From positions 4,039-68,038 of the IMG/VR virus record IMGVR_UViG_3300028607_003036: a stretch of 64,000 nt of DNA; one strand, 5' to 3'. The notes under the pieces were generated by a model. The model saw only the letters and a program-made list of their open reading frames with translations, made no database searches and was not told the DNA's origin. Below are positions 40,513 through 63,111 of this stretch, piece after piece (positions within the stretch are counted from its first letter, which is position 1; each line of letters starts with the position of its first letter). A program made the translations under genes and the position numbers. The DNA is from a virus.

Positions 40513-41409
40513 CTATTCATAGATAAACTCCAGTGTTCTTTCTAATCCGAGCCCCTTAAAATTAGTATCAGAAAAATGTCGTATAGTAATCATAGAGGGA
40601 TTAATAAAGTGTTTTGTAAATTTACGTCTTTGCATCTTAATATTTAATGAAATATGTTCGCTTTGAGGGTCATTAGGACCACCCCACCCCTCATATCTAC
40701 CAATTAAATGAGCAATCTTATAAATTCCAATGCCCCCAAAGCAAGAGCGGACTGGAATTGGTGATTTACCCCTTTGTAATTCCGAGACCAAATCCCCTTT
40801 CTTATCTAGAAAGTGATAAAATTTTCTTCTCTCATTATTAGGCATAATCACAGGAAAACAGTCATAAAAAACTGGTTTATCATTTACAAATTGTAATCCG
40901 TTAGATCCAATCATTGAGAAATCTGGTATAGCAAAACTATTAGCAACACCATCAATACTCCAACCGCCATGAAGATCAGGATCAACCACCACCATATAAT
41001 CAAAATTACTGTATTGACTATAGACTTTATCAAGGTATTTATTTCTATACTTCGCCATAAGTTGAACACGTTGTAAATCCTCACCCCTAATATTAGGATT
41101 ATTTAGATCTTCCATTTCTAAATCTAAATTTGGATCTTGCTTTTCCCAACTACTTAAAAACTGTTTTGTATCATCAGTTGAATCACTTTCGTAGATTATA
41201 ATTTTGTAATTTTTAAAGTACGATGCAAGCTTTTCAATACGTGCTTTAGAATAAGGAAATATCTCTGCAATATTTCTAATGCAACAACATATTACGGCAG
41301 ACGATGATTTCATACAGCTATAACCATTTTGTACATCTGCATAGTAAGATTCGTTGCTACCATCAACTGGAAACTTTAATTCTGGAAAAAAAGATAAATC
41401 TCTACTCAT
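40513..41409 (-). CDS. GT-A glycosyltransferase (CAP59/GT69-like)
   Basis: IYESDSTDDT, MAKYRNKYL, VVDPDL, PVRSCFGGIGIY. Confidence 0.8.
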   Translation of the reverse strand: MSRDLSFFPELKFPVDGSNESYYADVQNGYSCMKSSSAVICCCIRNIAEIFPYSKARIEKLASYFKNYKIIIYESDSTDDTKQFLSSWEKQDPNLDLEMEDLNNPNIRGEDLQRVQLMAKYRNKYLDKVYSQYSNFDYMVVVDPDLHGGWSIDGVANSFAIPDFSMIGSNGLQFVNDKPVFYDCFPVIMPNNERRKFYHFLDKKGDLVSELQRGKSPIPVRSCFGGIGIYKIAHLIGRYEGWGGPNDPQSEHISLNIKMQRRKFTKHFINPSMITIRHFSDTNFKGLGLERTLEFIYE

Positions 41410-41606
41410 TTTTTAGTACCCATAAGTGTATTGAAAAAGGATCTCTGTGATTTACCATCCATATCATATACTAGAGCCTGGAAAAATGCAAACATACATG
41501 ACTCACACATATCTACAACGTCTGGTACATTTTGAAAAGACATTTGTCTAGTTGAGGTAGAATAAACCTTATTCTTTATACATATATCACATACTGTTAT
41601 TTTCAT
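41406..41606 (-). CDS. Small Cys-containing hypothetical protein
   Basis: Start at 41606 after AGGAG; CDIC...CESC. Confidence 0.65.
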   Translation of the reverse strand: MKITVCDICIKNKVYSTSTRQMSFQNVPDVVDMCESCMFAFFQALVYDMDGKSQRSFFNTLMGTKK

Positions 41607-41633
41607 TTTTCCTTTTCTCCTACTACTATGTTC

Positions 41634-41702
41634 ATAGAGCATATAGTATCACCTATTGTTGTTAATCTAACTCGTTCTATTAAAATTATATCCACTCTAG
41701 CA
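41634..41702. repeat. Intergenic 69-bp inverted copy of a G8 gene segment
   Basis: Exact reverse complement of 24898-24966. Confidence 0.95.
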
Positions 41703-41713
41703 AGTGTCTTCAA
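41685..41713 (-). promoter_or_regulatory. Hybrid sigma-70-like promoter TTGAAG-N17-TATAAT
   Basis: The -35 comes from the neuA stop region and the -10 from the duplicated 69-bp piece. Confidence 0.45.
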
Positions 41714-42411
41714 GAATCTTTTTTTCTCCATATAATAGCTTCTGCAATCCAAAAATCGTCTTCGTTATCTATATCATGTGCTTCAATTTTATCAATATAA
41801 AATGGATATATATAATCTGTAAAAAAGTGTTGACATTTAATAAAATCTTCAAATTTTGCACCATATAATCCTGTAGGTCTTAATGGGAAATAATGATCCT
41901 GCCTCCTTGTATTTTTTTTGTGAAAGTTTTCATGATCTAAATATGGTATTAAACATTTATTATCGTTTGAAAGTGATAGTGTTGGTGGAAAGTCTACTTC
42001 TGTTACGGCTATTATTGATGTATAAGCTAGATCTAAAGTGATTAATTGATTAAACGATTTAACAAATTTATTCACTGTTTCATTTTTAATCATTACATAT
42101 GGTGGTAGAATCCAATAAATTTGATCAAACTTTTCGTAAAGTTTACTTTTTGCAACACTACATACCATATCTACAGCAGTTTTTTCAGATAATCTTTTAG
42201 AAGTTTCCGGGTATGATGAATGTTGCTTAGCTACATCTAAAATATCCTGTGAATCAGATGCGACTATTACTTCTGTAAAATTATTTTGTGCTGCGTCTAA
42301 ACAATAATATATAAGTGGTTGTCCACATAGATCTCGTATATTCTTGTCTTTGACACCAACAGAACCGCCACGTGTTGGAATAACGCAAAGGGATTTTATA
42401 ATATTATCCAT
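41710..42411 (-). CDS. neuA: Acylneuraminate cytidylyltransferase (NeuA/PseF/LegF type)
   Basis: IPTRGGSVGVKDKNIR.L.G.PLIYY, ASDS, DIDNEDDF. Confidence 0.88.
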   Translation of the reverse strand: MDNIIKSLCVIPTRGGSVGVKDKNIRDLCGQPLIYYCLDAAQNNFTEVIVASDSQDILDVAKQHSSYPETSKRLSEKTAVDMVCSVAKSKLYEKFDQIYWILPPYVMIKNETVNKFVKSFNQLITLDLAYTSIIAVTEVDFPPTLSLSNDNKCLIPYLDHENFHKKNTRRQDHYFPLRPTGLYGAKFEDFIKCQHFFTDYIYPFYIDKIEAHDIDNEDDFWIAEAIIWRKKDS

Positions 42412-43027
42412 GGAAAATTATTTTCCTTTCTTGTTCCATTTTGATTAACAAGTTTCTTTCTAAATTATAGTCGTGGCAAGCTGGTTTTGCTTTGGGCTTG
42501 TTCCAGTGATAGTGCCCCGTTAAAACATTCTTATCTTTTTTTGACCCGAATCCAAAAACGTGTGGAGAGATACCCGATTGAACCAGTAACGATATGATAA
42601 ATGCTCCCATAGACATATGTATGGAAATATTGTATTTAAAAAGATTTTGGTGGACCCATCTATTTGAGTGAAATACTTCTAATGACTCATCTAAATTTTC
42701 ACCATATTCTGCTAAAATTTTTGGCTCACAATCAACCAATACTTTAGTACCTCGCAGTTCTTTAATAAAATTTTTACCCGGCTGTTCTATACCATTTCTT
42801 ATGTCGGGAGAAGCTTTTAGAACATGAAGGTTGACACATCTTAAAGTAACTTTTTTACCAACATCTTTCTCAAATCCTAGAGTCGTAGCTCTATTAAATC
42901 TAACGACTTCGTCGTGTGAATCTATTTCCATACCTTGGCCAGCATGTAATAAACTATCAGCAGATCCAATAATAGCTACATCTTCATTAAGATATAAATC
43001 TGGCTTTATAAATAATATTCTTATCAT
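42404..43027 (-). CDS. GT29 sialyltransferase-like
   Basis: Sialylmotif L VAIIGS...G.EIDSHDEVVRFN.A...GFEKDVG.K.T; S-like SMGAFII; HY; VS-like HDYNLE. Confidence 0.88.
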   Translation of the reverse strand: MIRILFIKPDLYLNEDVAIIGSADSLLHAGQGMEIDSHDEVVRFNRATTLGFEKDVGKKVTLRCVNLHVLKASPDIRNGIEQPGKNFIKELRGTKVLVDCEPKILAEYGENLDESLEVFHSNRWVHQNLFKYNISIHMSMGAFIISLLVQSGISPHVFGFGSKKDKNVLTGHYHWNKPKAKPACHDYNLERNLLIKMEQERKIIFHG

Positions 43028-43485
43028 TGTTTTATTCTTTTTATTACTATTATTCTATCTTCAATCCAGCTAACATTAAAACCTTTTTGTTCTACATAAG
43101 GTAGAATTTTACAATCATCGCTTTTAGCGTTATCTATACATACAATTGCATGAGGATATAAAAATCTTTCTATCAGAAGATATTCTTGTAAACTATAATC
43201 TGTATTAAGTAGGACAAAGTCAAGTGGTGAATGTAAGAGTTTTAAGAGATTTAGACTATCTCCTCCTGATAAATAAACATAATCAAGGAGACTCTTGGTT
43301 TCCAGATATTCTTCACATACTAATGTATCTATACTTATTGCTACATAATCATGTTCATATTTAGAATTTTTAATAAAATTACAAATGTGTTCTGTTGAAT
43401 GTGCGGTACATCCAGTTTCTAAGATTATTAAGTCTCGTTGTAGTTTATCTTCTAACTCTTGAAGAAGGGGTATTAACCTCTGCAT
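43024..43485 (-). CDS. Class I SAM methyltransferase-like
   Basis: ILETG, GDSL..L, LDFVLL, IVCIDN. Confidence 0.55.
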   Translation of the reverse strand: MQRLIPLLQELEDKLQRDLIILETGCTAHSTEHICNFIKNSKYEHDYVAISIDTLVCEEYLETKSLLDYVYLSGGDSLNLLKLLHSPLDFVLLNTDYSLQEYLLIERFLYPHAIVCIDNAKSDDCKILPYVEQKGFNVSWIEDRIIVIKRIKQ

Positions 43486-44516
43486 GCTGTCCTCATAAAT
43501 GAAAGTTCTTGTTCGGGGGTTAGTTCAAAAGGGGGTTGTGCTGTGATTGGATCTTGTTGCTTTGGATTAATGTTATTTAAAGTGTCTTCGATATCATCAA
43601 ATAATTTTATATTTAATTCACGAGCAAAAAATGCAGCTTCTTCTAGTCGTGGTTTAATAATATTATTCATTTCTGGATTCTTAATAAGATATGAGTCACA
43701 AAATGAATTTTGTCCATCTCTTATAGAGATACTATCATTCCAAGATATACATGCTCCTATAGCAACAATCATTTTTTTAAAATTTTCTATCCAATGATCT
43801 GATTTCACCCATTCATGCTTGTCTCCAAAATACTGTGCACCTATTCCTGGAGAATTAGACTGGTGTAACATATATGGATAATCGTCTCGGTTACTATTGC
43901 CAGATACAGAATTTAAAAATCCATAAATTTGCTCGGTGAATCTAAAACAGGATGGATTAACCACGTTTGTTATTTTAGCTGTGCACTGTAAGTCTTTGGT
44001 ACGTATAACATTATGCCATGCCCCGTGCCACAACTTTGATTGCTCGGCAATTCTTGCTGTGGCTGTGTCTCCAATTATACTTGGTCGCTTGTACAACTTT
44101 CCTTTTTGAGTTACTTCACCATAGCATCCACCAGAAACAATAAACTTGTCAACACTGCCCCTTGAAGAAACGTAAGTCGGATGGGTTCTTAGGAATTCTA
44201 TATCTCTAGCCACTCCAGATAAGAAAAAGAAATCATCATTATCTACACAAAGTGTCAGCGGAGTACCAATATAATCAACTATGGTTGCAATTTTGTGATG
44301 AAATTCTGTTAAAGTTTTGTCTGGACCAAAATAGTGATATTCATACTCAAGATTTGGTAGTGTATCAAGTTGTGTCAACCAAGATATTTCTTCTTGACCC
44401 CCGTCTGCTACAATTATTTTCCACGGACATTGCACCATATCCATATAATGGAAGAACCGTTTGGTGTATTGTTGCCTCCCACAAAGAATCAATAAAATAG
44501 TTAGGTTACTTTTCAT
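43473..44516 (-). CDS. TIGR00180-like glycosyltransferase
   Basis: R..YTKRFF.Y, IIVADGG, TPLTLCVDNDDF. Confidence 0.75.
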   Translation of the reverse strand: MKSNLTILLILCGRQQYTKRFFHYMDMVQCPWKIIVADGGQEEISWLTQLDTLPNLEYEYHYFGPDKTLTEFHHKIATIVDYIGTPLTLCVDNDDFFFLSGVARDIEFLRTHPTYVSSRGSVDKFIVSGGCYGEVTQKGKLYKRPSIIGDTATARIAEQSKLWHGAWHNVIRTKDLQCTAKITNVVNPSCFRFTEQIYGFLNSVSGNSNRDDYPYMLHQSNSPGIGAQYFGDKHEWVKSDHWIENFKKMIVAIGACISWNDSISIRDGQNSFCDSYLIKNPEMNNIIKPRLEEAAFFARELNIKLFDDIEDTLNNINPKQQDPITAQPPFELTPEQELSFMRTACRG

Positions 44517-44665: not shown

Positions 44666-45547
44666 TTAATTAATATTTTCTTGATTTTTAACTTGTTCTA
44701 TACTTAATGCGTATTCTCTGTCAAGATTTGAATGTGGTTCTGGTGAGAAAAGGGCAATTTGAAATCTTCCTAGGTTTATATTATTCCACATATCGGTTTC
44801 AATAGAAGTTTGCGACGTTGTAAGAAATGTTGGTATATCCACACCGTGGTACATACTTGTAGTGAATATTATCATACATGTGCCCATTGCGTATTCATCT
44901 AAATACACTTTTTCTTCTCTTGAATTCAAAACATAGAATCCGCCATTTTCATAGTTACCTTTTGGATGTTTATCGGTTAATGTAATTCCACCAATAATTT
45001 TTTGGTTTTTAGGACTGTCCACGTGTGTTGAAATTTTCCCTGCAAATAAAGGGTAGTGTATGGCTCTAATACGATCAATCGTACCATCACTTGGAATATT
45101 GCTTTTAAACTCATCTGGTTTAAATCCACTAATCACTTTTAATTGACTCCAAGCTTCATCAACATATGGAAATATATTTACCTCATCTTTGTTCCATCTG
45201 AAAAAGTAATACGCATGATCAATAGATTCATAGCCTCCAGCGGGTCCAATGGGTGAATCTACAATAATATGATGATTAGGACATTCATCTAGAATTTTAT
45301 GGCTTTGTGGAGGAATAGATTTTCCCCAATTAAAAATTCGTTTTCTTAAACTTGTTGCTTCATCTTTAGTTAAAACATTTTGGATGATATAAATATCACC
45401 AGAATAAAAATTATCAATCATATCTAAGATTTCAGAAGGTAATAAATTAATATATCTTTCAAACTCCATCACATGGAGGTCTCTTACAAACCTCGGATAT
45501 GATACTATGCTTTCTAAATAATTCCATCTTTCTTTACATGGGTTCAT
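44666..45547 (-). CDS. 2OG-Fe(II) oxygenase
   Basis: HYP...THVD...NGGF...YHGV...RF (HxD...H...R). Confidence 0.8.
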   Translation of the reverse strand: MNPCKERWNYLESIVSYPRFVRDLHVMEFERYINLLPSEILDMIDNFYSGDIYIIQNVLTKDEATSLRKRIFNWGKSIPPQSHKILDECPNHHIIVDSPIGPAGGYESIDHAYYFFRWNKDEVNIFPYVDEAWSQLKVISGFKPDEFKSNIPSDGTIDRIRAIHYPLFAGKISTHVDSPKNQKIIGGITLTDKHPKGNYENGGFYVLNSREEKVYLDEYAMGTCMIIFTTSMYHGVDIPTFLTTSQTSIETDMWNNINLGRFQIALFSPEPHSNLDREYALSIEQVKNQENIN

Positions 45548-46566
45548 TTAAATCTCTTTACTATCTTGAGAATTTTTGCTATTTCGTCCTGAGACTCTTG
45601 TTTAAAAATAGGAAACAAATCTTGTGGGTTTTCACATCGTGCAAACTGTTTCATTTTATTTAGGCGTTGTGACTGTATGATATATCCTTCTATCTTTAGA
45701 TTTTTACATCTTAGCGATGCATCAGTATAATGCTCTTTGAATATAGAATTTTTATGACTACCGATATTTAAAGCCAATTCTTTTAGGTCTTTAGACTTAA
45801 AATCATCCTCATTAATTAAATTGATTAGTGGGGCCAAGTCAAGATCTAAAAAGTTAGGTTTAAATGGAATATCATTAGCTGTTTTGTCTGCTGTAAAATT
45901 AACTTTGGTAGATTGTTCTAAACTTCTAATCTGAAAGAATTCTGGTAATATATGTATCTTACCACGAAGTGCAAGAATTAATCCTAATACTTTGTCAAAG
46001 TAACGAAGTCCCCAAATCTCAGGATACTTGAGATGAAACTTATGTATCTTTTTTTGAACATCCGTCCTAATTATATTATGATTTTTAGCTGAAAATGTAT
46101 TCCAATGATGTTTTATTCTTTCTAGAGGATCGTCGTGATCTATCATCTCTACGAGATATTCAACTGTTTCATAGTCAAGACTGTCTTCATAGAGTGCGGC
46201 GCCATGACCACCTACAGCCACACATTCTGGGTGTTTATCTAAATATTTCAAACACTTAGGAATTGCCGGAAGTAATGTAAAATCGTCATCACAAGTGATT
46301 AACGTGTAGTCTGTGTCTACCATGTCTAACATCATATCAATTTTTTTGCAGTAGCTCCAGTTACAATTCCAATTATATTCAATATTATATTCATCTACAA
46401 TATTATCATTGTTAGAAATTATTAGTGGTTTTTCTGGAGTAGAATCAGCAACTATAATCTTACCAGGAAAATCTTTGTAATATTCAAGACAACGTCTCAA
46501 TGTTTTCCACCTATATTTTATTGGAATTATTATTGTTAAGTTCATTGCATCATATACTCTACACAT
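45544..46566 (-). CDS. TIGR00180-like glycosyltransferase
   Basis: IIPIKYR...RRCLEYY, IVADST, TDY.LITCDDDF, CLKYLDKHP. Confidence 0.85.
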   Translation of the reverse strand: MCRVYDAMNLTIIIPIKYRWKTLRRCLEYYKDFPGKIIVADSTPEKPLIISNNDNIVDEYNIEYNWNCNWSYCKKIDMMLDMVDTDYTLITCDDDFTLLPAIPKCLKYLDKHPECVAVGGHGAALYEDSLDYETVEYLVEMIDHDDPLERIKHHWNTFSAKNHNIIRTDVQKKIHKFHLKYPEIWGLRYFDKVLGLILALRGKIHILPEFFQIRSLEQSTKVNFTADKTANDIPFKPNFLDLDLAPLINLINEDDFKSKDLKELALNIGSHKNSIFKEHYTDASLRCKNLKIEGYIIQSQRLNKMKQFARCENPQDLFPIFKQESQDEIAKILKIVKRFK

Positions 46567-47510
46567 TCTTGTAGTTCAGATTTATATTCACTTTGTTTGA
46601 CTGAATTGTTAGAAAAAATAGAATATGGAAAATTATACGATAGATCAATCTTTGATGTAAAATTTTCTGTTTCAAAGTGATTCTTAATTAGATTATATAA
46701 TGTATTTTTGGATATATCACAATAATTGGCTAACGAGAGTAGATCTTCAGCTTCTAATAATCTTAAAGGAGTTGTATTTTTCATTTCTTCTTTAATTTTT
46801 GGTTGATTTATCACTCTTGATTGTGTGCTTCTAATTTGATATAAGATTGGTAACGTTTTTACATTTCCCAGTTTAGATAATATTACTAATAATAATCTCT
46901 CCAAATAATTAATTTTTGCTAAAGACTTGTTCTCTTGAAAAAATTTAAAACACTTTAATATTATGTCACTCCTAAAACAGGCGTGGTTTCTAGCATAGAA
47001 TGATTTATTTAAAATATTTTCTATTCTTCCAAGAGTATTATCTGAATAGAACTGTTCATTTGTACAACTAATATATGCTTCTGGATATTTAACTTTTACA
47101 TCTACCCCGTCGTGTGATAAATTGTTCTTAAACTCATCTGGTTGAAATCCACTTTGTGGAACATGAATATATAAATCAGAATATTGACCATCAACACATA
47201 CATAATCTAAATTTTTATCTAAAAACTCTACACATTTTGATATAGCTGATTTTATAACTAAATCGTCATCAGCACATTCTATTGTATATTTAGTGTCTAT
47301 GGTTTTGTAAACATTATACATTTTATCAAAGTAATTCATTTTTGGATAATATTGATATTCAATCCAGTTGCACCGTTCTATTCCTTTAATTGGTTCATCT
47401 GAAGATTCTGCTAAGATTATTTTAAATGACTCGTTTTTATAAAAATGAAGTATACGATTTACATTTTCTTTTCTATTTTTTACAGTTATTATTAATGTTA
47501 AGTCTAGCAT
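46542..47510 (-). CDS. TIGR00180-like glycosyltransferase
   Basis: ITVKNR...RILHFY, LAESS, TKY.IECADDD, CVEFLDKNLDY. Confidence 0.85.
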   Translation of the reverse strand: MLDLTLIITVKNRKENVNRILHFYKNESFKIILAESSDEPIKGIERCNWIEYQYYPKMNYFDKMYNVYKTIDTKYTIECADDDLVIKSAISKCVEFLDKNLDYVCVDGQYSDLYIHVPQSGFQPDEFKNNLSHDGVDVKVKYPEAYISCTNEQFYSDNTLGRIENILNKSFYARNHACFRSDIILKCFKFFQENKSLAKINYLERLLLVILSKLGNVKTLPILYQIRSTQSRVINQPKIKEEMKNTTPLRLLEAEDLLSLANYCDISKNTLYNLIKNHFETENFTSKIDLSYNFPYSIFSNNSVKQSEYKSELQECVEYMMQ

Positions 47511-47537: not shown

Positions 47538-48464
47538 TTATTCATAATCTTTTACCAATTTAATTATTTTCTTAATATCTTCACTTGAAAGTTTATGATG
47601 TAGTGGCAAGCTTACAGTCTTGCTTGATTCTCTCTCAGATTTCTGAAACTGATATAATTGAATTTGATTCTTAAATGATGGGTGGTATATCTTATTTTTA
47701 TGAAGGCATGGGTAGTGAATTCCGCATGTAATACCATTTTCTTTCATATACTTAACAAATTTTTCATTGTTGTCAACCTGAATCCTATAGAGATGATCAC
47801 TTTTATTTTGATAATTTAATGCATCATTATATATGGTACGTACTTCCGCAATTTTCTCTTTTCGTTCGTCAAGTGTTTTTAATTGCTGAAACGCTGCATA
47901 CACTTGAGGAACAATCATATAATTGTTATATCCAATCATCAATTGGCGACCATGACTAAAATCTAAACCACTCATAGCCTTTTGACGAAACCAATCTATA
48001 CGACCTTTATCGTTGGACACGACGGCAGCACCACATAATGCTCCACATATTTTTGTGGGATAAAAACTGTATATAATAATATCACTACTATGTTTGACTT
48101 CGTCAAACTGATTTCTATCCAATCGGTGTGCCGAGTCAATGATACCGGGATATAATTGGTAAGACCACCCTACCCATTCAGTATCTTCTACAAAATTAAG
48201 AAAGTTATCCGAATTTATAATTGCATTAGCTACAACATATGGAAGTATTGTTGGTACACTTATTGATTTTTTATATACATATTTTTGTTGTAGTGCTAAG
48301 GTGATGGCTGTGGTGGCGTTACTGATTAATGCCACGTATTTAGCGTTGGTATATTTGCAGAAAGCTTCTTCAAACTCAGGGACTACATCGTCGTATATTA
48401 AGTTTTTAAACTTAGAGCAATCTATGTTTCCATCGTATACTGGAAAAAGATTAATCACTAGCAT
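47538..48464 (-). CDS. DegT/DnrJ/EryC1/StrS sugar aminotransferase (compact)
   Basis: SNATTAI.LAL, IDSAH, SFYPTKI (PLP Lys), GIHYP, VSLPLH. Confidence 0.88.
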   Translation of the reverse strand: MLVINLFPVYDGNIDCSKFKNLIYDDVVPEFEEAFCKYTNAKYVALISNATTAITLALQQKYVYKKSISVPTILPYVVANAIINSDNFLNFVEDTEWVGWSYQLYPGIIDSAHRLDRNQFDEVKHSSDIIIYSFYPTKICGALCGAAVVSNDKGRIDWFRQKAMSGLDFSHGRQLMIGYNNYMIVPQVYAAFQQLKTLDERKEKIAEVRTIYNDALNYQNKSDHLYRIQVDNNEKFVKYMKENGITCGIHYPCLHKNKIYHPSFKNQIQLYQFQKSERESSKTVSLPLHHKLSSEDIKKIIKLVKDYE

Positions 48465-49202: not shown

Positions 49203-51179
<1,977 letters not shown>

Positions 51180-55039: not shown

Positions 55040-56264
55040 AGGGCTGTGTGGTTATCCAAGTTCCCTTAAAATTATTGTGTTTCTTAAGGATCTCATCCTG
55101 ATAGTTAGGAGCGGCAAGATAAATAACATCTGCTACTTCATTTAAATCTTCTGGTTCCTTTACGATGGGAATATGTGTTAGTGAAGTAAATTTACCAATT
55201 TTTTCTAAAGTTGTATCTGTAATACATTCAATCAGATCTCGTGAATAATTCATATCCATTTTTGTTTTATCAGCATCTTCATGACCGTTTATTACATAAT
55301 TTAAATATGAATAGATAGTACTAGATTTACTTGTTGCACCAAAAGCCATTTTTCTTTTACCAAAATTATTTTCTAAATATTCATAGAATTTTTCTATATT
55401 CCCTCTTACCTGTTCAGCAAATCTAAAATATGTTTCCAGTTCTTGTAATTTTGCGGTACTTTCTTCATATCCGAGCAATCCATTCATATCATCATCATAA
55501 GGAATATTAAAATTTCCTTTTTCAAAGAAGTATCGTTGAGAACCCATATGAATATCTGGTAATTCCTGTATCTTTACTAATCTTAACCCATGGTTATATG
55601 AGATTTTCTCTAATGCTATTCCTGAAAATATATAATGATGTTCATCATAAAATTGAGAATATGCACAACTCTTGATTGTATGTGATAATGATGGATCTTC
55701 AGTAATTAAAACTCCGCCATCTTTTAATGCTATGAAACACGCTTCAAAGAATTCATCTATATCTGAAACATGACACGCACAATTAGTCGCATAAATTAAA
55801 TCAAATTGACCACACTCTTCTTTTACTATCTTTGCATTTGATATATTCCAGAAAAATGGATAACACCTGTATCCTTCATTGTTTAGCTGATCGCAAAAGT
55901 TTTCACATGGTTCTACAGAAACTGCCTGATTTGTTAGAAAATTCTTTAGGAAAGTTCCATCGTTGCTACCAATTTCTAGTATTTTTTCACATTCAAAATT
56001 CTGTTTGATATAATCGGCAGCACTTTTAAAATGTCGTCTCATTGTTTGAGAACCACCAGTACGGTACGGGTAGTCTTTATTAAACATTAGCTTTGCATCA
56101 GGTTGCTCAACTAGTGAGACTAAGTAGTTCTCGGTATTAAATTGAACTTTAAGAGGAAAAGAATATTCAGTTGCTTTACCACTTTCGTAGGAGTCTTTCT
56201 CTTCTTTTGTAATGAACTTGTTTGAAAGGGGTTGAATTCCTAGGTCCAAAAATGTATGTTTCAT
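55008..56264 (-). CDS. NDP-sugar C-methyltransferase family
   Basis: LG.QPLSN, EIGSNDGTFL, NCACH, YDEH..IFS, FGATSK. Confidence 0.9.
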   Translation of the reverse strand: MKHTFLDLGIQPLSNKFITKEEKDSYESGKATEYSFPLKVQFNTENYLVSLVEQPDAKLMFNKDYPYRTGGSQTMRRHFKSAADYIKQNFECEKILEIGSNDGTFLKNFLTNQAVSVEPCENFCDQLNNEGYRCYPFFWNISNAKIVKEECGQFDLIYATNCACHVSDIDEFFEACFIALKDGGVLITEDPSLSHTIKSCAYSQFYDEHHYIFSGIALEKISYNHGLRLVKIQELPDIHMGSQRYFFEKGNFNIPYDDDMNGLLGYEESTAKLQELETYFRFAEQVRGNIEKFYEYLENNFGKRKMAFGATSKSSTIYSYLNYVINGHEDADKTKMDMNYSRDLIECITDTTLEKIGKFTSLTHIPIVKEPEDLNEVADVIYLAAPNYQDEILKKHNNFKGTWITTQPYVHEVKNEIT

Positions 56265-56619: not shown

Positions 56620-57453
56620 TTAAATAATTTTGAAGTCATGTAAATGTTCATCCTCTTTAAAAATAAATGGAAGCTGTTCACCGAATTTATTCTTGTTATA
56701 AAACGATTCTGTAAAATGCATGCCTTCTTTTCCAATATATATAGCACGATTCATACAGAAACGATAGCGTTTCATGTCATTTTGAGCTATTGCCCATTCT
56801 TTTCCACAATCTTGCCCTGTGACGTTAGACTTCCAATGACCCATTTTTTTAAAGAACTCAGAAATTTTAGCATGTGGTCGCTGTCTATATTCTACGTTAC
56901 GCACAAGATCATAATATTGATCAAATAGAGGGCGTATTCTTACGTGGTTGGATGATATGAATATCTCTGCAAAATGATGGTGATTATCGGATACTAAAGT
57001 GTCTAATTCTCTTGATTCATTATCCATCTTTCGGAAACCGGGGCTGAATGAGAAAATCGTTTCCTCATGCTCATCAAGATAGGGGATTAGTTCTAGTGCC
57101 AGCTTAAACCAGTGTGGACTTAATACTACATCATCTTCTAATAACATTACATAATCATAGTGGTTAGTGAGATAACAGAGTCCTTCATATTGATTAACTG
57201 CAAGACCTACATTATCTTTATCTCTTGAGTGAACTTCTTTATTTGGAATAGAAGATTCTTCAAATATTAGTGTGCAATTTATACAATCCATTGGTTTTGC
57301 TACAAGAACTCCAAGAGTTTTAGACATGTGACCATCTTGGAAGAGATGAAATTCAAAGTTATCAAGGTGTGAAGCACTTTCTATTGATTTAATCTGTTGT
57401 TTTAAATAGTTTGGTCTGTTGAAACTAAATATTCCTACTCCAATTTTTACCAT
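56620..57453 (-). CDS. GT-A glycosyltransferase (GT2-like)
   Basis: FSFNRPNYL, FQDG, MLLEDDVV. Confidence 0.85.
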   Translation of the reverse strand: MVKIGVGIFSFNRPNYLKQQIKSIESASHLDNFEFHLFQDGHMSKTLGVLVAKPMDCINCTLIFEESSIPNKEVHSRDKDNVGLAVNQYEGLCYLTNHYDYVMLLEDDVVLSPHWFKLALELIPYLDEHEETIFSFSPGFRKMDNESRELDTLVSDNHHHFAEIFISSNHVRIRPLFDQYYDLVRNVEYRQRPHAKISEFFKKMGHWKSNVTGQDCGKEWAIAQNDMKRYRFCMNRAIYIGKEGMHFTESFYNKNKFGEQLPFIFKEDEHLHDFKII

Positions 57454-57527: not shown

Positions 57528-58244
57528 CTATCTAGAATGACTTCTAGCAATAACTCTTTTAGTACCTTCCTCTTTAAGAAAGCCTCCAAAATGAAACATA
57601 GAACTGTGAAAGAAAAACATAGAACCGGCACTTCCTTCAATAGGAATTAGTTTATCTTCTATGGGGGCAAGTTCGGGATAATCCTTAACCTTATTTCTTA
57701 TCTTTGCATAATCAGACGTTTCCTTTAATGCATTCTGCCTGACTCTTTCTCCTAGGACTTGAGAACCTGGAATACAATGAAACGCACCATTTTCTACAGT
57801 TACATCATTAACATATATAAACGATTTACAGGTGGGGGTTTTGTCTACATGTGTAAACATATTAGGACTCCATTCATCTTCTGGAATCACATTTGTTTCT
57901 TCTGTGAGAAATATTTCTTCTGCAAAAGAAAAATTAGAACGATCTATCCACTCTCTATAAATATCATATTGCCAATCTGAACAAAATGTTTTATAAATCA
58001 TCGGATATTTTAGTCTTATATCTGTTTTATCTTTAGTTTTCATCCTACATGCACGACCAGGACTATAACTGGCTGCCAACTTTTCATACTCAAAACACTG
58101 AAAGACTTCCTGCTGAAATCCTGCTAAGTCTTCTCCTTCTAAAAAGGATGGAATAAAACAGATTCCAAATTCTCGTATAATATCTACAACTTTATTTGGA
58201 TTTTCTAGTGCTAATTGTTTATCTATAGTAAATTTATAATTCAT
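57528..58244 (-). CDS. PhyH-family 2OG-Fe(II) dioxygenase
   Basis: THVD, IYVNDVTVENGAFHCIPGSQ, GSAGS.FFF.S..FH.G. Confidence 0.88.
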   Translation of the reverse strand: MNYKFTIDKQLALENPNKVVDIIREFGICFIPSFLEGEDLAGFQQEVFQCFEYEKLAASYSPGRACRMKTKDKTDIRLKYPMIYKTFCSDWQYDIYREWIDRSNFSFAEEIFLTEETNVIPEDEWSPNMFTHVDKTPTCKSFIYVNDVTVENGAFHCIPGSQVLGERVRQNALKETSDYAKIRNKVKDYPELAPIEDKLIPIEGSAGSMFFFHSSMFHFGGFLKEEGTKRVIARSHSR

Positions 58245-58606
58245 TAGCGTTTATCCCATATTATTTTGTTTATCTTGTAATATGATTTTGGTATAGTTCG
58301 TTCGTATATTTTTTGTCTTTTTACTAAGTGAGAAATATCTATTTGCCATTTATTATCTTTTAAACGTTTTATTTCTATCATATCTTCTCTAGCTTTTTGT
58401 GGTACAAACATTTCTATTGCAGCTTCAGAATCTATCCAACAGTGTAAATCTTTGTCTATAACCATTTGCCAATGAGGAATCCATGCAGCTTCAAGAACGT
58501 CTAAATCTTTTACATGTCTATTTAATTTTTCAATAGGGAATTTATCATGAGCAAAAGTAGTACTAGCAATTATACAAATAATAAGTGGGGCTAGAACTTT
58601 TCTCAT
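58244..58606 (-). CDS. Exported hypothetical protein
   Basis: Signal peptide MRKVLAPLIICIIASTTFA. Confidence 0.7.
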   Translation of the reverse strand: MRKVLAPLIICIIASTTFAHDKFPIEKLNRHVKDLDVLEAAWIPHWQMVIDKDLHCWIDSEAAIEMFVPQKAREDMIEIKRLKDNKWQIDISHLVKRQKIYERTIPKSYYKINKIIWDKR

Positions 58607-59391
58607 GATGTCACCTTCTGGATTAGTTGTTGTTTCTCAATCAGACCTCTCATCTGAGATAACTCTATCTGACAATCAGCATCTGAAATAGCTTCACTTG
58701 GATTAGGATGACACTCAGCAAAAATACCGTCAAAATCGAAAATACTCGATGCTAAGAAGTATTTCTTAGCAAGTTCTCTGTTGCCCCCGGTAAAACCATC
58801 TCTTGTGTATTGCGTGGAGTGGGTGCAATCAATTATGACCTTATCCCAGTGTTTCCGCATATGTTCAACACCACCTAAATCTAGAACAAGTCTATCATAT
58901 CCAAAAAATGTTCCACGATCTGTAATCCACGCTTCACAATGGGGATTTGTCTTTTTAATCTTATCTATCCATTTGCAGGATTGAGTAGGACTAGCCCACT
59001 GGCCTTTTTTAACATTGACTTTATTAAAATACTTTGCTGCTTCAATTAACATGTCTGTTTGACGACATAAAAATGCTGGTATTTGTATTAAATCTATTAC
59101 TGGTGCTAAGTCTACTGCCTGCCAAGGCTCGTGAAAATCTGTTGTTAATTGTATCTCTGGCAATTCTTTTTTAATTGCTTTAAAGCATTCTATGCCATAT
59201 TCTAAATTGAAGTCAGTATCTTGTGATATACCTCTTCTACCCTTTATAGAAGTTCTATTAGCTTTACAAAATGATATTTTATAAAACCATGTTTTAATTC
59301 CAAGATCATTCATTAATGATGAAAGATATTTACCTGTTTCTAAATAAGATTGTTTGGATTCTAATCCACACATACCTAATATATAATGCAT
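58603..59391 (-). CDS. kdsA: KdsA-like 3-deoxy-ulosonate phosphate synthase
   Basis: KANRTS, TTDFHE, QIPAFLCRQTD, NVKKGQW, DRG, DCTHS, ECHPNP..A.SDA. Confidence 0.9.
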   Translation of the reverse strand: MHYILGMCGLESKQSYLETGKYLSSLMNDLGIKTWFYKISFCKANRTSIKGRRGISQDTDFNLEYGIECFKAIKKELPEIQLTTDFHEPWQAVDLAPVIDLIQIPAFLCRQTDMLIEAAKYFNKVNVKKGQWASPTQSCKWIDKIKKTNPHCEAWITDRGTFFGYDRLVLDLGGVEHMRKHWDKVIIDCTHSTQYTRDGFTGGNRELAKKYFLASSIFDFDGIFAECHPNPSEAISDADCQIELSQMRGLIEKQQLIQKVTS

Positions 59392-59392: not shown

Positions 59393-59535
59393 TTACACCT
59401 TATTTAATCTAGAGTATTCACCAAATATTTCAGTGGCTTTATTGTTGTAAACTATTGCTGCTTCTTTTGGATCTTTAAAATATTCTAGATAGTAGTTTTG
59501 TTCTTTGGTTCTTAATTCTGCTGTATATCCTCTAA
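59393..59535 (-). pseudogene. AP2-domain remnant of an HNH-AP2 endonuclease
   Basis: Frame without a start codon: RGYTAELRTKEQNYYLEYFKDPKEAAIVYNNKATEIFGEYSRLNKV*. Confidence 0.75.
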
Positions 59536-60156
59536 TTTCTCCATATGTATAGAAGGAGCGATTGGTCCTAAATCATAACCATCTTCACTAAGAGAAAAAC
59601 TTCCAAACCCTTTACCTTCTTGACCATTTTTACCAGTTGATTCATTTCCGTCACCACTTCCGTTACCTCTACCGAAACCATTTCCATTACCTTTTCCGTT
59701 TCCTTGACCTTTTTTAGATCCCTTTTTACCCTTTTTAGTTCCCACTACAATTTCGCCATTCTTTAATCTTTTAATTATATCTTCCATTAACTCATGTAGC
59801 TTTCTTTCATATGGAACTTTATATGTTCGTGGCTCATTGCTTTCGTAATCAAGAATACCAGATTTTGATTTAACTAGTGGTGTAACCCATAAAAATATAG
59901 CTCCGGGATTACCAATCTGTTTATTTTCCTCGTGTACGATAACCCAGTGAATTAAGAATTTATCTGGTAGTGATTGTTCTGTAGCAAATCCCTTGTATGA
60001 ATCTATTGAGTGCCATACGATAAATCCAATCCAAGTAGAAAATGCTATAGTTAGGATTTTTAAAGTCCAGTGACCCTTGCCTCCGATAATAAAATATAGT
60101 AGTAAAACTACTAAACATGTTATTACAAAGGGAATACTTAAAGATGTTAATTCCAT
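59512..60156 (-). CDS. Membrane protein (2 TM, exported domain, Gly/Lys-rich tail), partner of the ExbBD-like pair
   Basis: Hydrophobic N-terminus; GKKGKKGSKKGQGNGKGNG tract. Confidence 0.75.
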   Translation of the reverse strand: MELTSLSIPFVITCLVVLLLYFIIGGKGHWTLKILTIAFSTWIGFIVWHSIDSYKGFATEQSLPDKFLIHWVIVHEENKQIGNPGAIFLWVTPLVKSKSGILDYESNEPRTYKVPYERKLHELMEDIIKRLKNGEIVVGTKKGKKGSKKGQGNGKGNGNGFGRGNGSGDGNESTGKNGQEGKGFGSFSLSEDGYDLGPIAPSIHMEKLEDIQQN

Positions 60157-60800
60157 TAATGAAACTCCCTTGGAGTAGATCCAGGTCTTTGTGTAGCTAA
60201 TAATTTTTGCAATTCGTTAATTCCGTGTACTTTGCCTTCCATATCCACCGAAAATCTAAAAGCAGTTTGTTCTTCTCCGTGATGAGTAAACTTCATCTTC
60301 TTAATATGTACCAAGCTATAACTATTCATCTTTTCAAGTTTTATAATTACTTCTAGCGGCTTTGTTTCTCTCCATGTCCAAGCATGAGCATTAATTGTAA
60401 ATTCAGTAGGCAGAATGCCACGTATATATACGTGTTCTACATTTTTTGTAATTGTGAATATTTCACCCTGTTCTGTCGTGAATGTATCAGAATATTTGCC
60501 AGTATCATCCTGTTCTAGGTGTAGAAATCCTTGTTCTCTTCTTCTAAATCCAACTAAATTACCATATCCATCCTCAACCCATAGATCCATATCAGTTTCA
60601 CTATCGTCATACCAACTCATGGTAATGATAAATTCAGCTTTACTTTCTGTGTTTTGTGACTTCTTATCTTCAACTGTGATAAGTAGAAAAGATAAGATGA
60701 ATAGTACCATTAATCCTAGTACTAGACTAAATAACATATCCAAAAAAGATGTATCAGCACTATATTTATTTTGCATTTTTTTATCTAATGAAATATCCAT
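60156..60800 (-). CDS. ExbD/MotB-like single-TM protein with a YfaP/DUF2135-like exported domain
   Basis: FLDMLF at the TM start (conserved Asp); DMDLWV...G...HLEQDD...E. Confidence 0.65.
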   Translation of the reverse strand: MDISLDKKMQNKYSADTSFLDMLFSLVLGLMVLFILSFLLITVEDKKSQNTESKAEFIITMSWYDDSETDMDLWVEDGYGNLVGFRRREQGFLHLEQDDTGKYSDTFTTEQGEIFTITKNVEHVYIRGILPTEFTINAHAWTWRETKPLEVIIKLEKMNSYSLVHIKKMKFTHHGEEQTAFRFSVDMEGKVHGINELQKLLATQRPGSTPREFH

Positions 60801-60879
60801 ATATTAGAAAAAATATAATTTCAATCCAAGCCGCCATCTCAGAATCAATCAGAAAACTTAGAAGTGAATCTATTTTCAT
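60781..60879 (-). CDS. 32-aa membrane peptide between the motA-like and exbD-like genes
   Basis: MKIDSLLSFLIDSEMAAWIEIIFFLIYGYFIR; ATGA overlap with the motA-like stop. Confidence 0.45.
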   Translation of the reverse strand: MKIDSLLSFLIDSEMAAWIEIIFFLIYGYFIR

Positions 60880-61382
60880 TTTTTATTCTTTTCTAAGAAA
60901 TTATTTCTAATGAATCGAACCTCATTTTCCAACATAAAATATTCTAAACGAAGTAATAAAGAACAAATAATTCCTGTGATGGTAGTGATTAAGGCGGTTG
61001 ATATACCACCGGCAATTTGTTGAATTAGCATTTTCATCTCTAGTGGATTAGATACATCCATGTTTTCAAAGCCACTGAAACTTAACATTAATCCTATCAC
61101 GGTTCCTAACAATCCTAGGCTGATAACTTGAGCAGATACAAACCATCCCCATTCGCATAATCGTTCAGCACGATTACATGAGTACTCTGTATGATCTATT
61201 GCCCAGCATTTAAATCCACACCATATTGACATAAAATAGAACAATAACATTATTATGTAACTAATATGTGTTGAATCCCCTTCCCATATCGCTCCGTATA
61301 TCCCTAGTCTATAGAGAACTAGTGAAGATACAGAAATTAATGATATCAGAAGGAACCAGTAGAGAAATATTTTATGTTTCAT
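60876..61382 (-). CDS. MotA/TolQ/ExbB proton-channel family
   Basis: LGLLGTVIGL...F and GISTALITTITG helices. Confidence 0.9.
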   Translation of the reverse strand: MKHKIFLYWFLLISLISVSSLVLYRLGIYGAIWEGDSTHISYIIMLLFYFMSIWCGFKCWAIDHTEYSCNRAERLCEWGWFVSAQVISLGLLGTVIGLMLSFSGFENMDVSNPLEMKMLIQQIAGGISTALITTITGIICSLLLRLEYFMLENEVRFIRNNFLEKNKK

Positions 61383-61420: not shown

Positions 61421-62335
61421 TTAATTTCCATAACTTTCCTTCATTTCTAAAATCATATCTTCTATTTCTAGATAATCTGCTTTTCGTAATTCTGGAAATG
61501 GTTTCTTATTACCTATTTCGAATCCTAAAGCTTTAATTGCATATCTTAAAGATATGTGCCATCCATATTTAGACATTACATCAAAAAATTTATCTTCAAG
61601 TTTTAACATCATATCAGGATGGTCGCTAGGTTTAGAAGAAAAAATTTGTTCTCCATTATAAATACATTCATATAAAGCGTTTTCTAATTTAGGAAATACA
61701 CTACCCAATCCAGAAAGATACGTATTTGCCCCGGCGTTTATACATAAAGAGAATCGTCTACCAGAACCACCAGCAACACAGATAGTAAAGTTATCATTAG
61801 CTAATCGAGATACCTGATAAGCTGTTTCATAGTGAAGTGACTCTTCTTTTAATCCCGTAATGTTAGGGTGCTCGCTCAACTTTTGAATAACATCTAGAGG
61901 ATAGTCTACCCATTTTAGTCCGTATCCAGAACGTAGTGGTTGTGCGTGTATCCATATTGGACATGGTGAATCATCGGCAACTTCAAAGAAGAAATCAATA
62001 ATAGTTTGTTCATCGTAAAGTCTATCTGGATAAAGAATTAAAGCAATATCATCATTTTTTACAGATCCTTTTATACATCTTAATAGACGTTTTGTTTCCG
62101 TTAAAGGCGCCGGAGATATACCTGATATTAGCTGTTTATCAAAATAATCATAACACCGCCAGTTAAAATTTATAATTTCGGCATTTGATAATAAATTATA
62201 CTGACTTGTTCCAGCCGTAGTCATTATTGTTTCAACGCCTTCACTACTAAGATATTTAAGATATCTTCCTAGTTCTTTATTGTTTAGACTTTCGTCTTCG
62301 TTATAGAACGGTGGTATGGGGACTATAGGACTCAT
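61421..62335 (-). CDS. DapA/NanA-family class I aldolase
   Basis: PIPPF, TAGTSQYNLLS..E, ITGLKEE Schiff-base Lys. Confidence 0.85.
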   Translation of the reverse strand: MSPIVPIPPFYNEDESLNNKELGRYLKYLSSEGVETIMTTAGTSQYNLLSNAEIINFNWRCYDYFDKQLISGISPAPLTETKRLLRCIKGSVKNDDIALILYPDRLYDEQTIIDFFFEVADDSPCPIWIHAQPLRSGYGLKWVDYPLDVIQKLSEHPNITGLKEESLHYETAYQVSRLANDNFTICVAGGSGRRFSLCINAGANTYLSGLGSVFPKLENALYECIYNGEQIFSSKPSDHPDMMLKLEDKFFDVMSKYGWHISLRYAIKALGFEIGNKKPFPELRKADYLEIEDMILEMKESYGN

Positions 62336-62349
62336 GAGATGAAAACCTT

Positions 62350-62394
62350 TTAATTGGGAAAATTAAGATAAGCAAATTTACTAAATAATTCTTT
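62350..62394 (-). pseudogene. Second AP2-domain tail remnant
   Basis: KELFSKFAYLNFPN* in an intergenic gap, with stop codons upstream. Confidence 0.55.
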
Positions 62395-62400
62395 TTAACA

Positions 62401-62598
62401 TTATTCATAATACTCCACTTCTATAGTAGCTCCGATTCTATCAACCGTAGACATAAATACGGATGTTCTAAATCTCATATTTTGGGGTTTTAAATCCTTG
62501 TATGCTATGCATGCTTTTGACGCAATTTTTTTGAGAATACTATCTAAAGTTTCTCCTGCGTCTATGTTTACCGAAGCTAATAATCGTCTCTTAACCAT
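62401..62598 (-). CDS. Hypothetical protein
   Basis: 65-aa ORF. Confidence 0.55.
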   Translation of the reverse strand: MVKRRLLASVNIDAGETLDSILKKIASKACIAYKDLKPQNMRFRTSVFMSTVDRIGATIEVEYYE

Positions 62599-62640
62599 TT
62601 ATAAATCTTATGGGAACCCATTCATTCATAGTATATTTGT

Positions 62641-63111
62641 TTATTTTTCCATCTCATGTTTATTCTCCCAGGGAAACGGAGTGTTTGGTTGCTCACATCC
62701 TAAAAAACTGCATAGAGTAGGCCAACTATGGAAATCTGAACATATATTCATTATTAGAAGACTATCACTTCTTTGAAAGAAGTATTGACTAACTTCACTT
62801 TCATATTTATGAATATTAAAATTTTCATTTGGACAAAATTTTTTTAACGACTTATTCCAGTTTTCTTTATCTCTTGTCGTAATAATAAATTTACTATTTG
62901 GATATGTGTAATCTAATCTCTTGTAGAAAAAAGATAAGATAGAACTAACTATTCCATCATATTTTTCTATATCATTACAAATACTACTCCAGGTATAATT
63001 TCCGCTTTGAATTGAACAATGATGAAATGTTTTATATCCTAAAATGTTTAGGGCGGAAGATAGTGAGGTAGTTCCCGTCCTTGAATATCCTATGCCGAAA
63101 ATTTTATTCAT
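62641..63111 (-). CDS. Sulfotransferase family 4-like
   Basis: KIFGIGYSRTGTTSL..AL..LGY, IITTRD..W..S, WPTLCSFLG...P..PFP..N. Confidence 0.88.
   Translation of the reverse strand: MNKIFGIGYSRTGTTSLSSALNILGYKTFHHCSIQSGNYTWSSICNDIEKYDGIVSSILSFFYKRLDYTYPNSKFIITTRDKENWNKSLKKFCPNENFNIHKYESEVSQYFFQRSDSLLIMNICSDFHSWPTLCSFLGCEQPNTPFPWENKHEMEK

Follow-up and report, generated by a model that had tools for sequence, protein, structure and literature searches.

What does a phage build with a dense block of sugar enzymes that comes without export genes, and onto which molecule does the product go? The question is raised by IMG/VR record IMGVR_UViG_3300028607_003036, a single 77,532-bp virus contig (G000) in which no terminal repeat was found. 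We analysed its positions 4039-68038, a stretch of 64,000 nt that we call the window; coordinates refer to the window unless they carry a prefix, and L001 is the flank just left of it. All genes of the window lie on the minus strand, guanine-cytosine (GC) content is ~32 per cent throughout, and minus-strand open reading frames (ORFs) cover 95 per cent of the 77.5-kb contig. Between 40513 and 63111 the ORF listing holds 31 co-oriented minus-strand ORFs of at least 80 amino acids (aa), and Pfam, NCBIfam, sequence searches of PDB and the ESM Atlas give a sugar-metabolism assignment for 22 of them. With ~22 enzymes this glycan island is one of the densest phage examples; an earlier note on this DNA had counted more than 20, and every enzyme class that it named is supported.

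The gene content of the island, the solubility of its enzymes, its linkage to phage genes and its recurrence in other viruses are documented below. The substrates, step order and acceptor are what we infer, and our best reading of the whole is a cytoplasmic, soluble, host-fed toolkit. By analogy with mycobacteriophages and giant viruses, we tentatively favour a phage-made protein (virion or fibre) as the acceptor, while rating that reading at somewhat under an even chance.

Missing export genes and a conserved glycosyltransferase core

A transmembrane (TM) scan predicts no TM segment in any island enzyme, and no protein with at least five TM segments occurs in the 77.5-kb record or in its 119-kb relative G001 (79 per cent complete). 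Bac_transf (PF02397) and adenosine 5'-phosphosulfate (APS) kinase are absent in all five records searched, and an RmlA-type nucleotidyltransferase (NTP_transferase, PF00483) is absent from the present record, G001 and a second relative, G010; one other record that bears a glycosyltransferase (GT) of family GT29, G004, has such an enzyme. No phosphoglycosyl transferase, Wzx/Wzy or ABC exporter, or ligase, the hallmarks of an O-antigen or capsule locus, was found in the present record or G001. The earlier note had likewise seen no flippase, polymerase, exporter or initiating transferase and had concluded that this is no standard O-antigen or capsule locus; we agree, as the enzymes are soluble throughout and lack dedicated export and polymerization machinery. 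Because an RmlA-type enzyme and APS kinase are missing, the toolkit would depend on the host for primary nucleoside diphosphate (NDP)-hexose and 3'-phosphoadenosine 5'-phosphosulfate (PAPS), and because export genes are missing, every membrane step would be host-supplied, if the product is exported at all.

The true relatives of the phage are G001 (IMGVR_UViG_3300025277_002331; 119 kb, GC 42 per cent), G010 and G006, which share a split DnaE at 44-49 per cent identity and a syntenic replication module. A five-gene cluster with GT4 enzymes, here L001:27-3677 plus window 2-1552, is kept in place in G001 and G010. The GT4 genes, of which the earlier note had correctly reported the two in the window, are as follows.

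2-1552, minus strand: GT4-like glycosyltransferase outside the island, syntenic in G001 and G010 at 41-43 per cent identity
35937-37028, minus strand: GT4 (GT-B) glycosyltransferase outside the island (Pfam, PHROG); the syntenic G001 gene is 44 per cent identical
L001:1636-2571 and L001:2568-3677: two further GT4 genes just left of the window

Judged by its synteny, the gene at 35937-37028 is a lineage-conserved core gene. The comparison with related phages that the earlier note had suggested also found homologues of six island genes in G001 and G010 (FdtA, the short DegT, PhyH, a sulfotransferase, the CMP-transferase and GT29, all described below); these are 23-40 per cent identical and elsewhere positioned, directly adjoining the GT4 cluster. 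The comparison therefore points to a lineage in which the GT4 core is conserved, whereas the tailoring island is plastic and relocatable. Together with that core, the lack of lipid-carrier initiation, flippase, polymerase, ligase and exporter would make a phage-made protein the likeliest acceptor.

The same evidence bears on host-envelope remodelling, a serious contender to which we give a lower probability. Phage-made sugars and peripheral glycosyltransferases would act on host undecaprenyl- or lipid A-core-linked intermediates, and a host flippase, ligase or ABC system would export the altered lipopolysaccharide (LPS) or capsule, for example excluding competitors or avoiding re-adsorption. 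This is how the 'LPS/CWSM' (cell-wall synthesis/modification) genes of cyanomyoviruses (PMC12801897) and pelagimyophages (PMC7029224) are usually read. Against it stand the absence of an initiating transferase, flippase, polymerase, ligase and exporter from both 77.5 kb and the 79 per cent-complete relative, and the GT4 cluster, which is the conserved core of a lytic-type lineage and not a moron; nor is any lytic phage known from experiment to rebuild host LPS with such a set.

A putative ulosonic-acid module

Four island genes could make, activate and transfer an acidic sugar related to 3-deoxy-D-manno-octulosonate (Kdo), with cytidine monophosphate (CMP) as the activating group.

58603-59391, minus strand: KdsA-like Kdo-8-phosphate synthase (NCBIfam)
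61421-62335, minus strand: class I aldolase of the dihydrodipicolinate synthase (DHDPS)/NanA superfamily (Pfam DHDPS, 1e-10)
41710-42411, minus strand: putative CMP-ulosonic-acid synthetase (Pfam CTP_transf_3, 1.8e-15), the cytidylyltransferase or CMP-transferase of the text
42404-43027, minus strand: minimal GT29 sialyltransferase-fold enzyme of 207 aa without a TM segment (Pfam Glyco_transf_29, 1.5e-20)

The KdsA-like protein scores just under the curated cut-off of NF003543 (231.9 bits against 242) and reaches 221 bits with TIGR01362 (cut-off 314). Its nearest ESM Atlas clusters are 79-93 per cent viral, and homologues at 42-52 per cent identity occur in five related loci. In the aldolase, the Lys of VGIKEE is invariant (alignment A2). 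Its AlphaFold2 (AF2) model (predicted local distance difference test [pLDDT] 85) resembles DHDPS, 2-keto-3-deoxygluconate (KDG) aldolase, KDG dehydratase and NanA alike (TM-score ~0.8, 14-20 per cent identity), and we treat the protein as a new subfamily of the superfamily. A NeuB-type synthase is absent. The KdsA-like enzyme and the DHDPS-like aldolase are the only candidate sources of the acid.

The cytidylyltransferase has PseF as its best NCBIfam match (84 bits; cut-off 206), reaches at most 36 bits with KdsB models and is closest in PDB to the CMP-N-acetylneuraminic acid synthetase 6ifd; by these scores it is nearer to PseF/NeuA than to KdsB, of which it does not qualify as an equivalog. 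Its gene overlaps the GT29 gene by 8 bp.

The GT29 family profile matches ST3Gal-I (2wnb) with E 3.7e-16, spanning sialylmotifs L, S, III and VS. In alignments A1 and A4, residues G32, D36, R43, G141 and Y173 are invariant (A4), and H185 and E190 are present in at least 90 per cent (27 sequences); the protein thus carries the H-Y of sialylmotif III and the H...E of motif VS that mark CAZy GT29. With its AF2 model (pLDDT 91.4), Foldseek PDB ranks 1-30 are all GT29 (best 8e-11, TMq 0.6-0.7), and the first match outside the family, after rank 30, is the GT42 enzyme CstII. Since a CTP_transf_3 gene adjoins the GT29 gene here and accompanies it in 14 of 22 loci, a CMP-ulosonate donor is proposed, and we propose from sequence that the 42404-43027 product may be a CMP-ulosonate (Kdo-type) transferase. 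For envelope remodelling, the Kdo-type chemistry suggested by the KdsA-like enzyme is a favourable point, and a transferase that is GT29-like and not WaaA/GT30 is an unfavourable one.

The enzyme shares with CAZy GT29 the sialylmotifs L, S, III and VS and the GT-A variant fold. It differs in its size, since ~200 aa amount to a minimal catalytic domain, and in its genomic partner, which is KdsA-type and not NeuB-type. Bacterial GT29-like proteins without a TM segment are known, including from marine Gram-negative genomes, and like the present protein they also lack conserved disulfide cysteines (PMC5811610). RCKT1, a GT29 enzyme from plants, has been put forward as a CMP-Kdo transferase (PMC11288761), and Fadolivirus combines a GT29-like fold with a predicted Kdo pathway (PMC9614988); both fit the proposed link between GT29 and a CMP-ulosonate.

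Aminosugar and tailoring enzymes

A second block resembles a route to an amino-dideoxy sugar.

50074-51186, minus strand: DegT-family NDP-ketosugar aminotransferase (Pfam, 1e-84; best PDB matches 7b0m and perosamine synthetases)
51464-52105, minus strand: NeuD/PglB/VioB-family (NeuD/PerB-type) sugar N-acetyltransferase (NCBIfam TIGR03570)
52134-53102, minus strand: extended short-chain dehydrogenase/reductase (SDR), an NDP-sugar epimerase, dehydratase or reductase (Pfam Epimerase, 1.6e-26)
53099-53545, minus strand: FdtA-type 3,4-ketoisomerase-like cupin (Pfam FdtA, 7e-26)
53573-54028, minus strand: second cupin, a weak match (Pfam Cupin_2, 0.006)

The N-acetyltransferase just passes its model (TIGR03570, 161.1 bits against a cut-off of 160.8) and is closest in PDB to the perosamine N-acetyltransferase 4ea7. 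NCBIfam and PDB matches of the SDR are all weak (36 bits to RmlB). A ketoisomerase/cupin, a DegT enzyme and a left-handed beta-helix (LbH) N-acetyltransferase are contiguous at 50074-53545, the combination expected of an FdtA/B/C or Per/PerB-type pathway; the nucleotidyltransferase and 4,6-dehydratase of a self-sufficient NDP-amino-dideoxyhexose pathway were not found (PF00483 is absent from the three records named above). By its domain content, the 50074-54028 block appears suited to converting an NDP-4-keto-6-deoxyhexose into an N-acetylated amino-dideoxy sugar.

The remaining tailoring candidates are these.

47538-48464, minus strand: short DegT-like pyridoxal phosphate enzyme (Pfam, 1.2e-25)
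55008-56264, minus strand: NDP-sugar 3-C-methyltransferase of TcaB9/KijD1 type (Pfam Methyltransf_13, 23, 14)
49202-49942, minus strand: RMNT_CmcI-type sugar O-methyltransferase (Pfam, 9e-52)
43024-43485, minus strand: small class I S-adenosylmethionine (SAM) O-methyltransferase-like protein (ESM Atlas)
54122-54829, minus strand: Sulfotransfer_2-like sulfotransferase (Pfam, 1.7e-6)
62641-63111, minus strand: soluble 156-aa sulfotransferase (Sulfotransfer_4; Pfam, 8.6e-29)
57528-58244, minus strand: PhyH-type Fe/2-oxoglutarate (2OG) dioxygenase (Pfam, 2e-11; present in six loci)
44666-45547, minus strand: Fe/2OG dioxygenase-like protein (ESM Atlas features 0.97, structure TM-score 0.88 to Fe2OG clusters)

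The short DegT-like enzyme keeps the D..A motif and the SF..K lysine, has a deletion of ~28 aa (alignment A3) and belongs to a virus-conserved subfamily (G001 homologue 40 per cent identical). The 3-C-methyltransferase matches PDB 5t6b over its full length (3e-42), and the 43024-43485 protein matches mostly viral Methyltransf_24/3 clusters (ESM Atlas features 0.92, TM-score 0.83-0.85). In one JGI variant (L004) the small sulfotransferase is 173 aa long. A thioredoxin-like gene directly adjoins it (62641-63546), as in the unrelated cyanomyovirus S-SCSM2R (L011 7127-7866), and the two may form a conserved two-gene unit.

The 3-C-methyltransferase, DegT, FdtA and O-methyltransferases are typical of natural-product deoxysugar tailoring, and no acceptor is identified. 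Both points would fit a soluble or small-molecule glycoconjugate, or a mere redirection of host nucleotide-sugar pools. We regard this reading as improbable, however, because at least nine glycosyltransferases, two sulfotransferases and the CMP-ulosonate transfer module suggest that the product is an oligo- or polysaccharide, and the contig has no aglycone pathway (polyketide synthase or nonribosomal peptide synthetase).

Glycosyltransferases and other genes

Five further glycosyltransferases of GT-A type lie in the island, among non-sugar genes that include a MotA/ExbB-like trio and several small proteins with signal-like N-termini.

40513-41409, minus strand: CAP59_mtransfer-like GT-A glycosyltransferase (Pfam, 2.3e-9)
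45544-46566 and 46542-47510, minus strand: two GT2 paralogues (Pfam Glycos_transf_2, 1.6e-5)
43473-44516, minus strand: third GT2-like paralogue (BLAST cluster with the preceding two)
56620-57453, minus strand: weakly matching GT-A (GT2-like) glycosyltransferase (Pfam Glycos_transf_2, 1.9e-4, below cut-off)
59512-61382, minus strand: MotA/TolQ/ExbB-like 4-TM protein and two single-TM proteins (Pfam MotA_ExbB, 6e-12; TM scan)
58244-58606, minus strand: 120-aa protein with an N-terminal signal-like hydrophobic stretch and no Pfam match

Small ORFs with twin-arginine-like leaders (for example MNRRNLLGSL...) occur at 40490-40518 on the minus strand and at 48735-49202, and one overlaps the CAP59-like gene at its stop. 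Outside the island, the 787-aa product of 23455-25818 contains a CEMIP/G8 beta-helix domain (Pfam, 1.9e-18), lacks a PHROG match and is a possible glycan-binding or glycan-cleaving protein.

The island belongs to a marine phage

The record encodes a replication and recombination set (a split DnaE-type polymerase, exonuclease, primase, DnaB and a UvsX-like recombinase), nucleotide metabolism (ribonucleotide reductase, ThyX, dCMP deaminase and nicotinate phosphoribosyltransferase [NAPRTase]), and ClpP, a sigma-70 region-4 protein, an RNA ligase-like protein, rIIA, rIIB and tRNA-Met. The N-half (7106-8926) and C-half (3631-5268) of DnaE are separated by several genes, and split and gene order are common to G001, G010 and G006; the split is therefore a lineage trait and not an assembly error. 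DnaE is the marker of the marine jumbo-phage group PGC_A (PMC9123017). Structural genes and a terminase are absent from the 77.5-kb fragment. CheckV completeness is 26 per cent, from which the record would be a fragment of a roughly 300-kb jumbo-phage genome, if the estimate is right. Neither the island nor 1-25000 had a megablast match among GenBank phages, and a search by rIIA alone found no close relatives. The same DNA turned up in metagenomes of seawater, marine sediment and vents that come from three or more marine studies.

Could the island be bacterial DNA that a misassembly attached to a phage contig, or that was captured from a host very recently? The signs in favour lie on its left side, where short-read graphs break at 40430-40464 and 41634-41702, with flanking pieces that overlap as in the window, and where depth differs moderately between left flank and island in two of the sequencing runs X1-X3 (21.7 against 28, and ~9 against 16). 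In run X3, by contrast, depth is equal (13.5 and 13.9). Composition is also that of the rest of the phage (tetranucleotide correlation 0.97-0.98; GC 31.7 per cent in the island and 32-33 per cent elsewhere), and a 32,810-bp Logan contig runs from 41703 through the whole island to rIIA/rIIB and beyond. Other independent JGI/Logan contigs keep island genes joined to rII-side genes (thioredoxin-like, YpsA, NAPRTase), G001 and G010 carry homologous glycan genes beside the same split DnaE, and the nearest KdsA and methyltransferase clusters are viral. Given the uniform composition, the 32.8-kb linking contig and the relatives, a host-derived misassembly, which the earlier note had named as what would undo its proposal, is hardly credible. 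The phage is an uncultured marine jumbo phage that replicates with a DnaE-type enzyme, and the island is an integral and variable part of its genome.

Its left edge is variable. The sequence at 41634-41702 is a perfect 69-bp inverted copy of 24898-24966; the former copy is intergenic, between the CAP59-like and CMP-transferase genes, and the latter lies inside the 787-aa G8/CEMIP gene. Every short-read assembly graph breaks at this repeat, which could mediate inversion of the intervening 16.7-kb segment. The 1.2-kb segment 40430-41663, with the CAP59-like gene, has ~2x flank depth in run X2 and graph branch points on both sides, and the 35-bp node 40430-40464 joins an alternative left flank whose read sequence is absent from the window. 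This depth and branching suggest that variants co-occur or that the edge of the island is a recombination hot spot.

The nucleotide-metabolism genes bear on glycan hypermodification of phage DNA, of the glucosyl-hydroxymethylcytosine type of T4 or more complex. GT4 genes lie near nucleotide-metabolism genes, and more complex DNA glycans in phages are reportedly a finding of Pyle et al. from 2024. Phage glycosyltransferases can act on DNA, according to work cited in PMC12619734. We nevertheless hold this target to be very improbable. Thymidylate synthase is the normal flavin-dependent ThyX (1e-72 to 6j61; Pfam Thy1), accompanied by dCMP deaminase; no hydroxymethylase or ThyA homologue was found, a provisional result since the contig is a fragment; and ulosonic-acid transfer, sulfation and C-methyl aminosugars are without precedent on DNA.

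Recurrence in other viruses

GT29-like homologues occur on 21 IMG/VR viral contigs (up to 200 kb) and three other long metagenome contigs; one of the IMG/VR contigs carries a T4-type Gp23 capsid gene. Clustering the ORFs of 22 non-redundant GT29 loci gave the following numbers of loci with each partner near GT29.

CMP-transferase: 14 of 22 loci
GT4: 12 of 22 loci
SDR: 10 of 22 loci
DHDPS-like aldolase: 9 of 22 loci
DegT: 7 of 22 loci
KdsA: 6 of 22 loci
PhyH: 6 of 22 loci
FdtA: 6 of 22 loci
C-methyltransferase: 4 of 22 loci

The tight order GT29, aldolase, KdsA is found in three loci (L012, L014 and L016). When 1.84 billion representative proteins were searched with a GT29 profile, 329 clusters came out at E <=1e-30, with most proteins ~200 aa long; some proteins of 400-900 aa in this search have two or three GT29-like stretches. 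One contig, L035 (IMGVR_UViG_3300035698_015077), has nine GT29-cluster ORFs, eight of them within ~7 kb (3475-10594; the other at 19163-19774). Short GT29-like folds are present in BFVD in Fadolivirus, Homavirus, ChoanoV1 and uncultured Caudovirales.

Among GenBank phages, a GT29-like relative was found in only one, an uncultured 484-kb phage, the cytidylyltransferase has no match, and the 3-C-methyltransferase has five weak ones (24-27 per cent identity); DegT is frequent among cyanophages and huge phages. Marine bacterial metagenome-assembled genomes (Opitutales, Neptunomonas) have GT29-like genes as well, which are not close to the present phage; together with those of marine Gram-negative genomes (PMC5811610), they lend some support to a role in the host envelope.

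Proposed pathway and acceptor

In the pathway that we propose, host primary metabolites would feed the toolkit: NDP-hexose, PAPS, SAM and probably arabinose-5-phosphate and a Kdo-8-phosphate phosphatase. The KdsA-like synthase, perhaps with the DHDPS/NanA-type aldolase, would make a Kdo-type 3-deoxy-ulosonic acid, which the NeuA/PseF-like cytidylyltransferase would activate and the minimal GT29 enzyme transfer. The SDR, FdtA-like cupins, perosamine-synthase-like aminotransferase, PerB/NeuD-like N-acetyltransferase and TcaB9-type 3-C-methyltransferase would act on a host NDP-4-keto-6-deoxyhexose and yield an N-acetylated amino-dideoxy sugar, possibly C-branched at C-3. Five GT-A enzymes and the lineage-conserved GT4 enzymes outside the island would assemble a heteroglycan, and the O-methyltransferases, two Fe/2OG oxygenases and two sulfotransferases would render it acidic, methylated and sulfated.

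A possible acceptor context is offered by G001, where the glycan block abuts a divergent block (L038:80-19762). Besides a 3885-aa ORF, a 1246-aa ORF and further large ORFs, that block has a GT11 gene and encodes a Cys-rich protein of 294 aa containing a tract of 30 serine residues. The present contig has no such serine-run protein, and G001 and G010 together have one serine-tract protein.

Several observations weigh against a phage-made protein as acceptor, or against parts of the pathway. The giant ORFs beside the G001 island match nothing in Pfam or PHROG and therefore cannot be called virion proteins, and elsewhere giant ORFs do not regularly neighbour the GT29 loci. As the 77.5-kb fragment has no structural gene, no acceptor can be named. 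Soluble glycosyltransferases are also usual in ordinary O-antigen loci, host Wzx, WaaL or ABC systems could export the product of the island, and the classical place of Kdo is the envelope. The island shares its strand with replication and rII, sits among genes of early/middle type and includes envelope-directed proteins (ExbB-like, secreted, lipoproteins). This co-orientation, the ExbB-like, Sec/Tat-signal and lipoprotein genes, and the thioredoxin and sulfotransferase pair that is also adjacent in S-SCSM2R are all points in favour of envelope remodelling. As for the pathway, KdsD (SIS) and KdsC (HAD) have no Pfam match among island ORFs, on a contig that is a genome fragment, and there is no RmlA or clear 4,6-dehydratase. 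Since the KdsA-like protein falls below its cut-off and the cytidylyltransferase is not a KdsB equivalog, the ulosonic acid may differ from Kdo itself. The earlier note had set virion proteins, phage DNA and host glycans side by side as targets; ThyX, dCMP deaminase and the missing hydroxymethylase make DNA unlikely, and the other two are inseparable by sequence.

Comparison with known systems

Cyanomyoviruses and pelagimyophages are likewise large lytic marine phages with many glycosyltransferases and nucleotide-sugar enzymes of predicted function. S-SCSM2R has 22 cell-wall synthesis/modification genes, including 13 glycosyltransferases, kdsA and kdsB, with such genes also in P-SSM2 and S-SCSM1 (PMC12801897), and pelagimyophages carry LPS-related genes (PMC7029224). 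S-SCSM2R resembles the present phage in kdsA, kdsB, a sulfotransferase adjoining a thioredoxin, 2OG oxygenases and a cupin. In contrast to these groups, the present lineage has a split DnaE, whose N-half is at most 33 per cent identical to that of any GenBank phage; its genes form one dense 22-kb block, whereas theirs form scattered groups; and its island adds a GT29-like transferase, a cytidylyltransferase and a 3-C-methyltransferase that are rare or unmatched in GenBank phages.

Giant viruses, too, have soluble rare-sugar pathways of their own, with glycosyltransferases and methyltransferases, no export genes and clade-specific gene content. The 38-kb Kdo glycogene cluster of CroV has a NeuA-like cytidylyltransferase, and Fadolivirus has a predicted Kdo pathway (PMC9614988); as in the present island, KdsA is paired in CroV with a NeuA-like and not a KdsB-like enzyme. 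The present virus differs in its bacterial host, in having no KdsC/KdsD fusions and in having sulfotransferases. Mimivirus glycans are chemically demonstrated on virion fibrils, whereas the present island is known from genes alone.

Mycobacteriophages (Che8, Corndog, Myrna) glycosylate their virions (Freeman et al. 2023, as cited in PMC12619734). They too reportedly encode soluble glycosyltransferases and methyltransferases, which decorate their own capsid and tail proteins in the cytoplasm. Their cassettes are reportedly small, occur in actinobacteriophages and lie beside structural genes, whereas here ~22 enzymes of acidic and sulfated chemistry lie on a fragment with no structural genes.

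Our literature search found no paper on a phage module of GT29, CMP-transferase, KdsA and aldolase. The view of the earlier note that the island is the leading candidate for an undescribed system was nonetheless overstated: comparable gene sets have been published (PMC12801897, PMC7029224, PMC9614988) and the island core recurs in more than 20 other viral contigs, so that 'undescribed system' is not supported.

Significance

Glycan synthesis by viruses is chemically well documented only for giant viruses and a few mycobacteriophages, and to our knowledge the 'LPS' genes of marine phages have never been assigned a target. The island links a minimal GT29 enzyme to a KdsA/CMP-transferase module seen repeatedly in phages and giant viruses, and the gene set (KdsA, aldolase, CMP-transferase, GT29) is small enough for expression and assay.

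A bolder extension, which we consider rather unlikely, is that jumbo phages of the marine DnaE lineage, and numerous other uncultured phages with them, cover their particles or fibres in a sulfated and methylated heteroglycan that contains Kdo. It would be built in the cytoplasm by a 'Golgi-like' set (minimal GT29, CAP59/GT69-like, GT11 and carbohydrate sulfotransferases), with the 200-aa GT29 as a CMP-Kdo-type transferase shared by phages and giant viruses. If true, viruses would carry a ulosonic-acid module of their own, one that may have passed from viruses of bacteria to those of protists or the other way. A phage particle with a sulfated Kdo-type glycan or the rewriting of host LPS, if either were shown, would answer a question open since the P-SSM2 genome, with implications for phage adsorption, for the aggregation and sinking of viral particles and for the origin of eukaryotic sialyltransferases.

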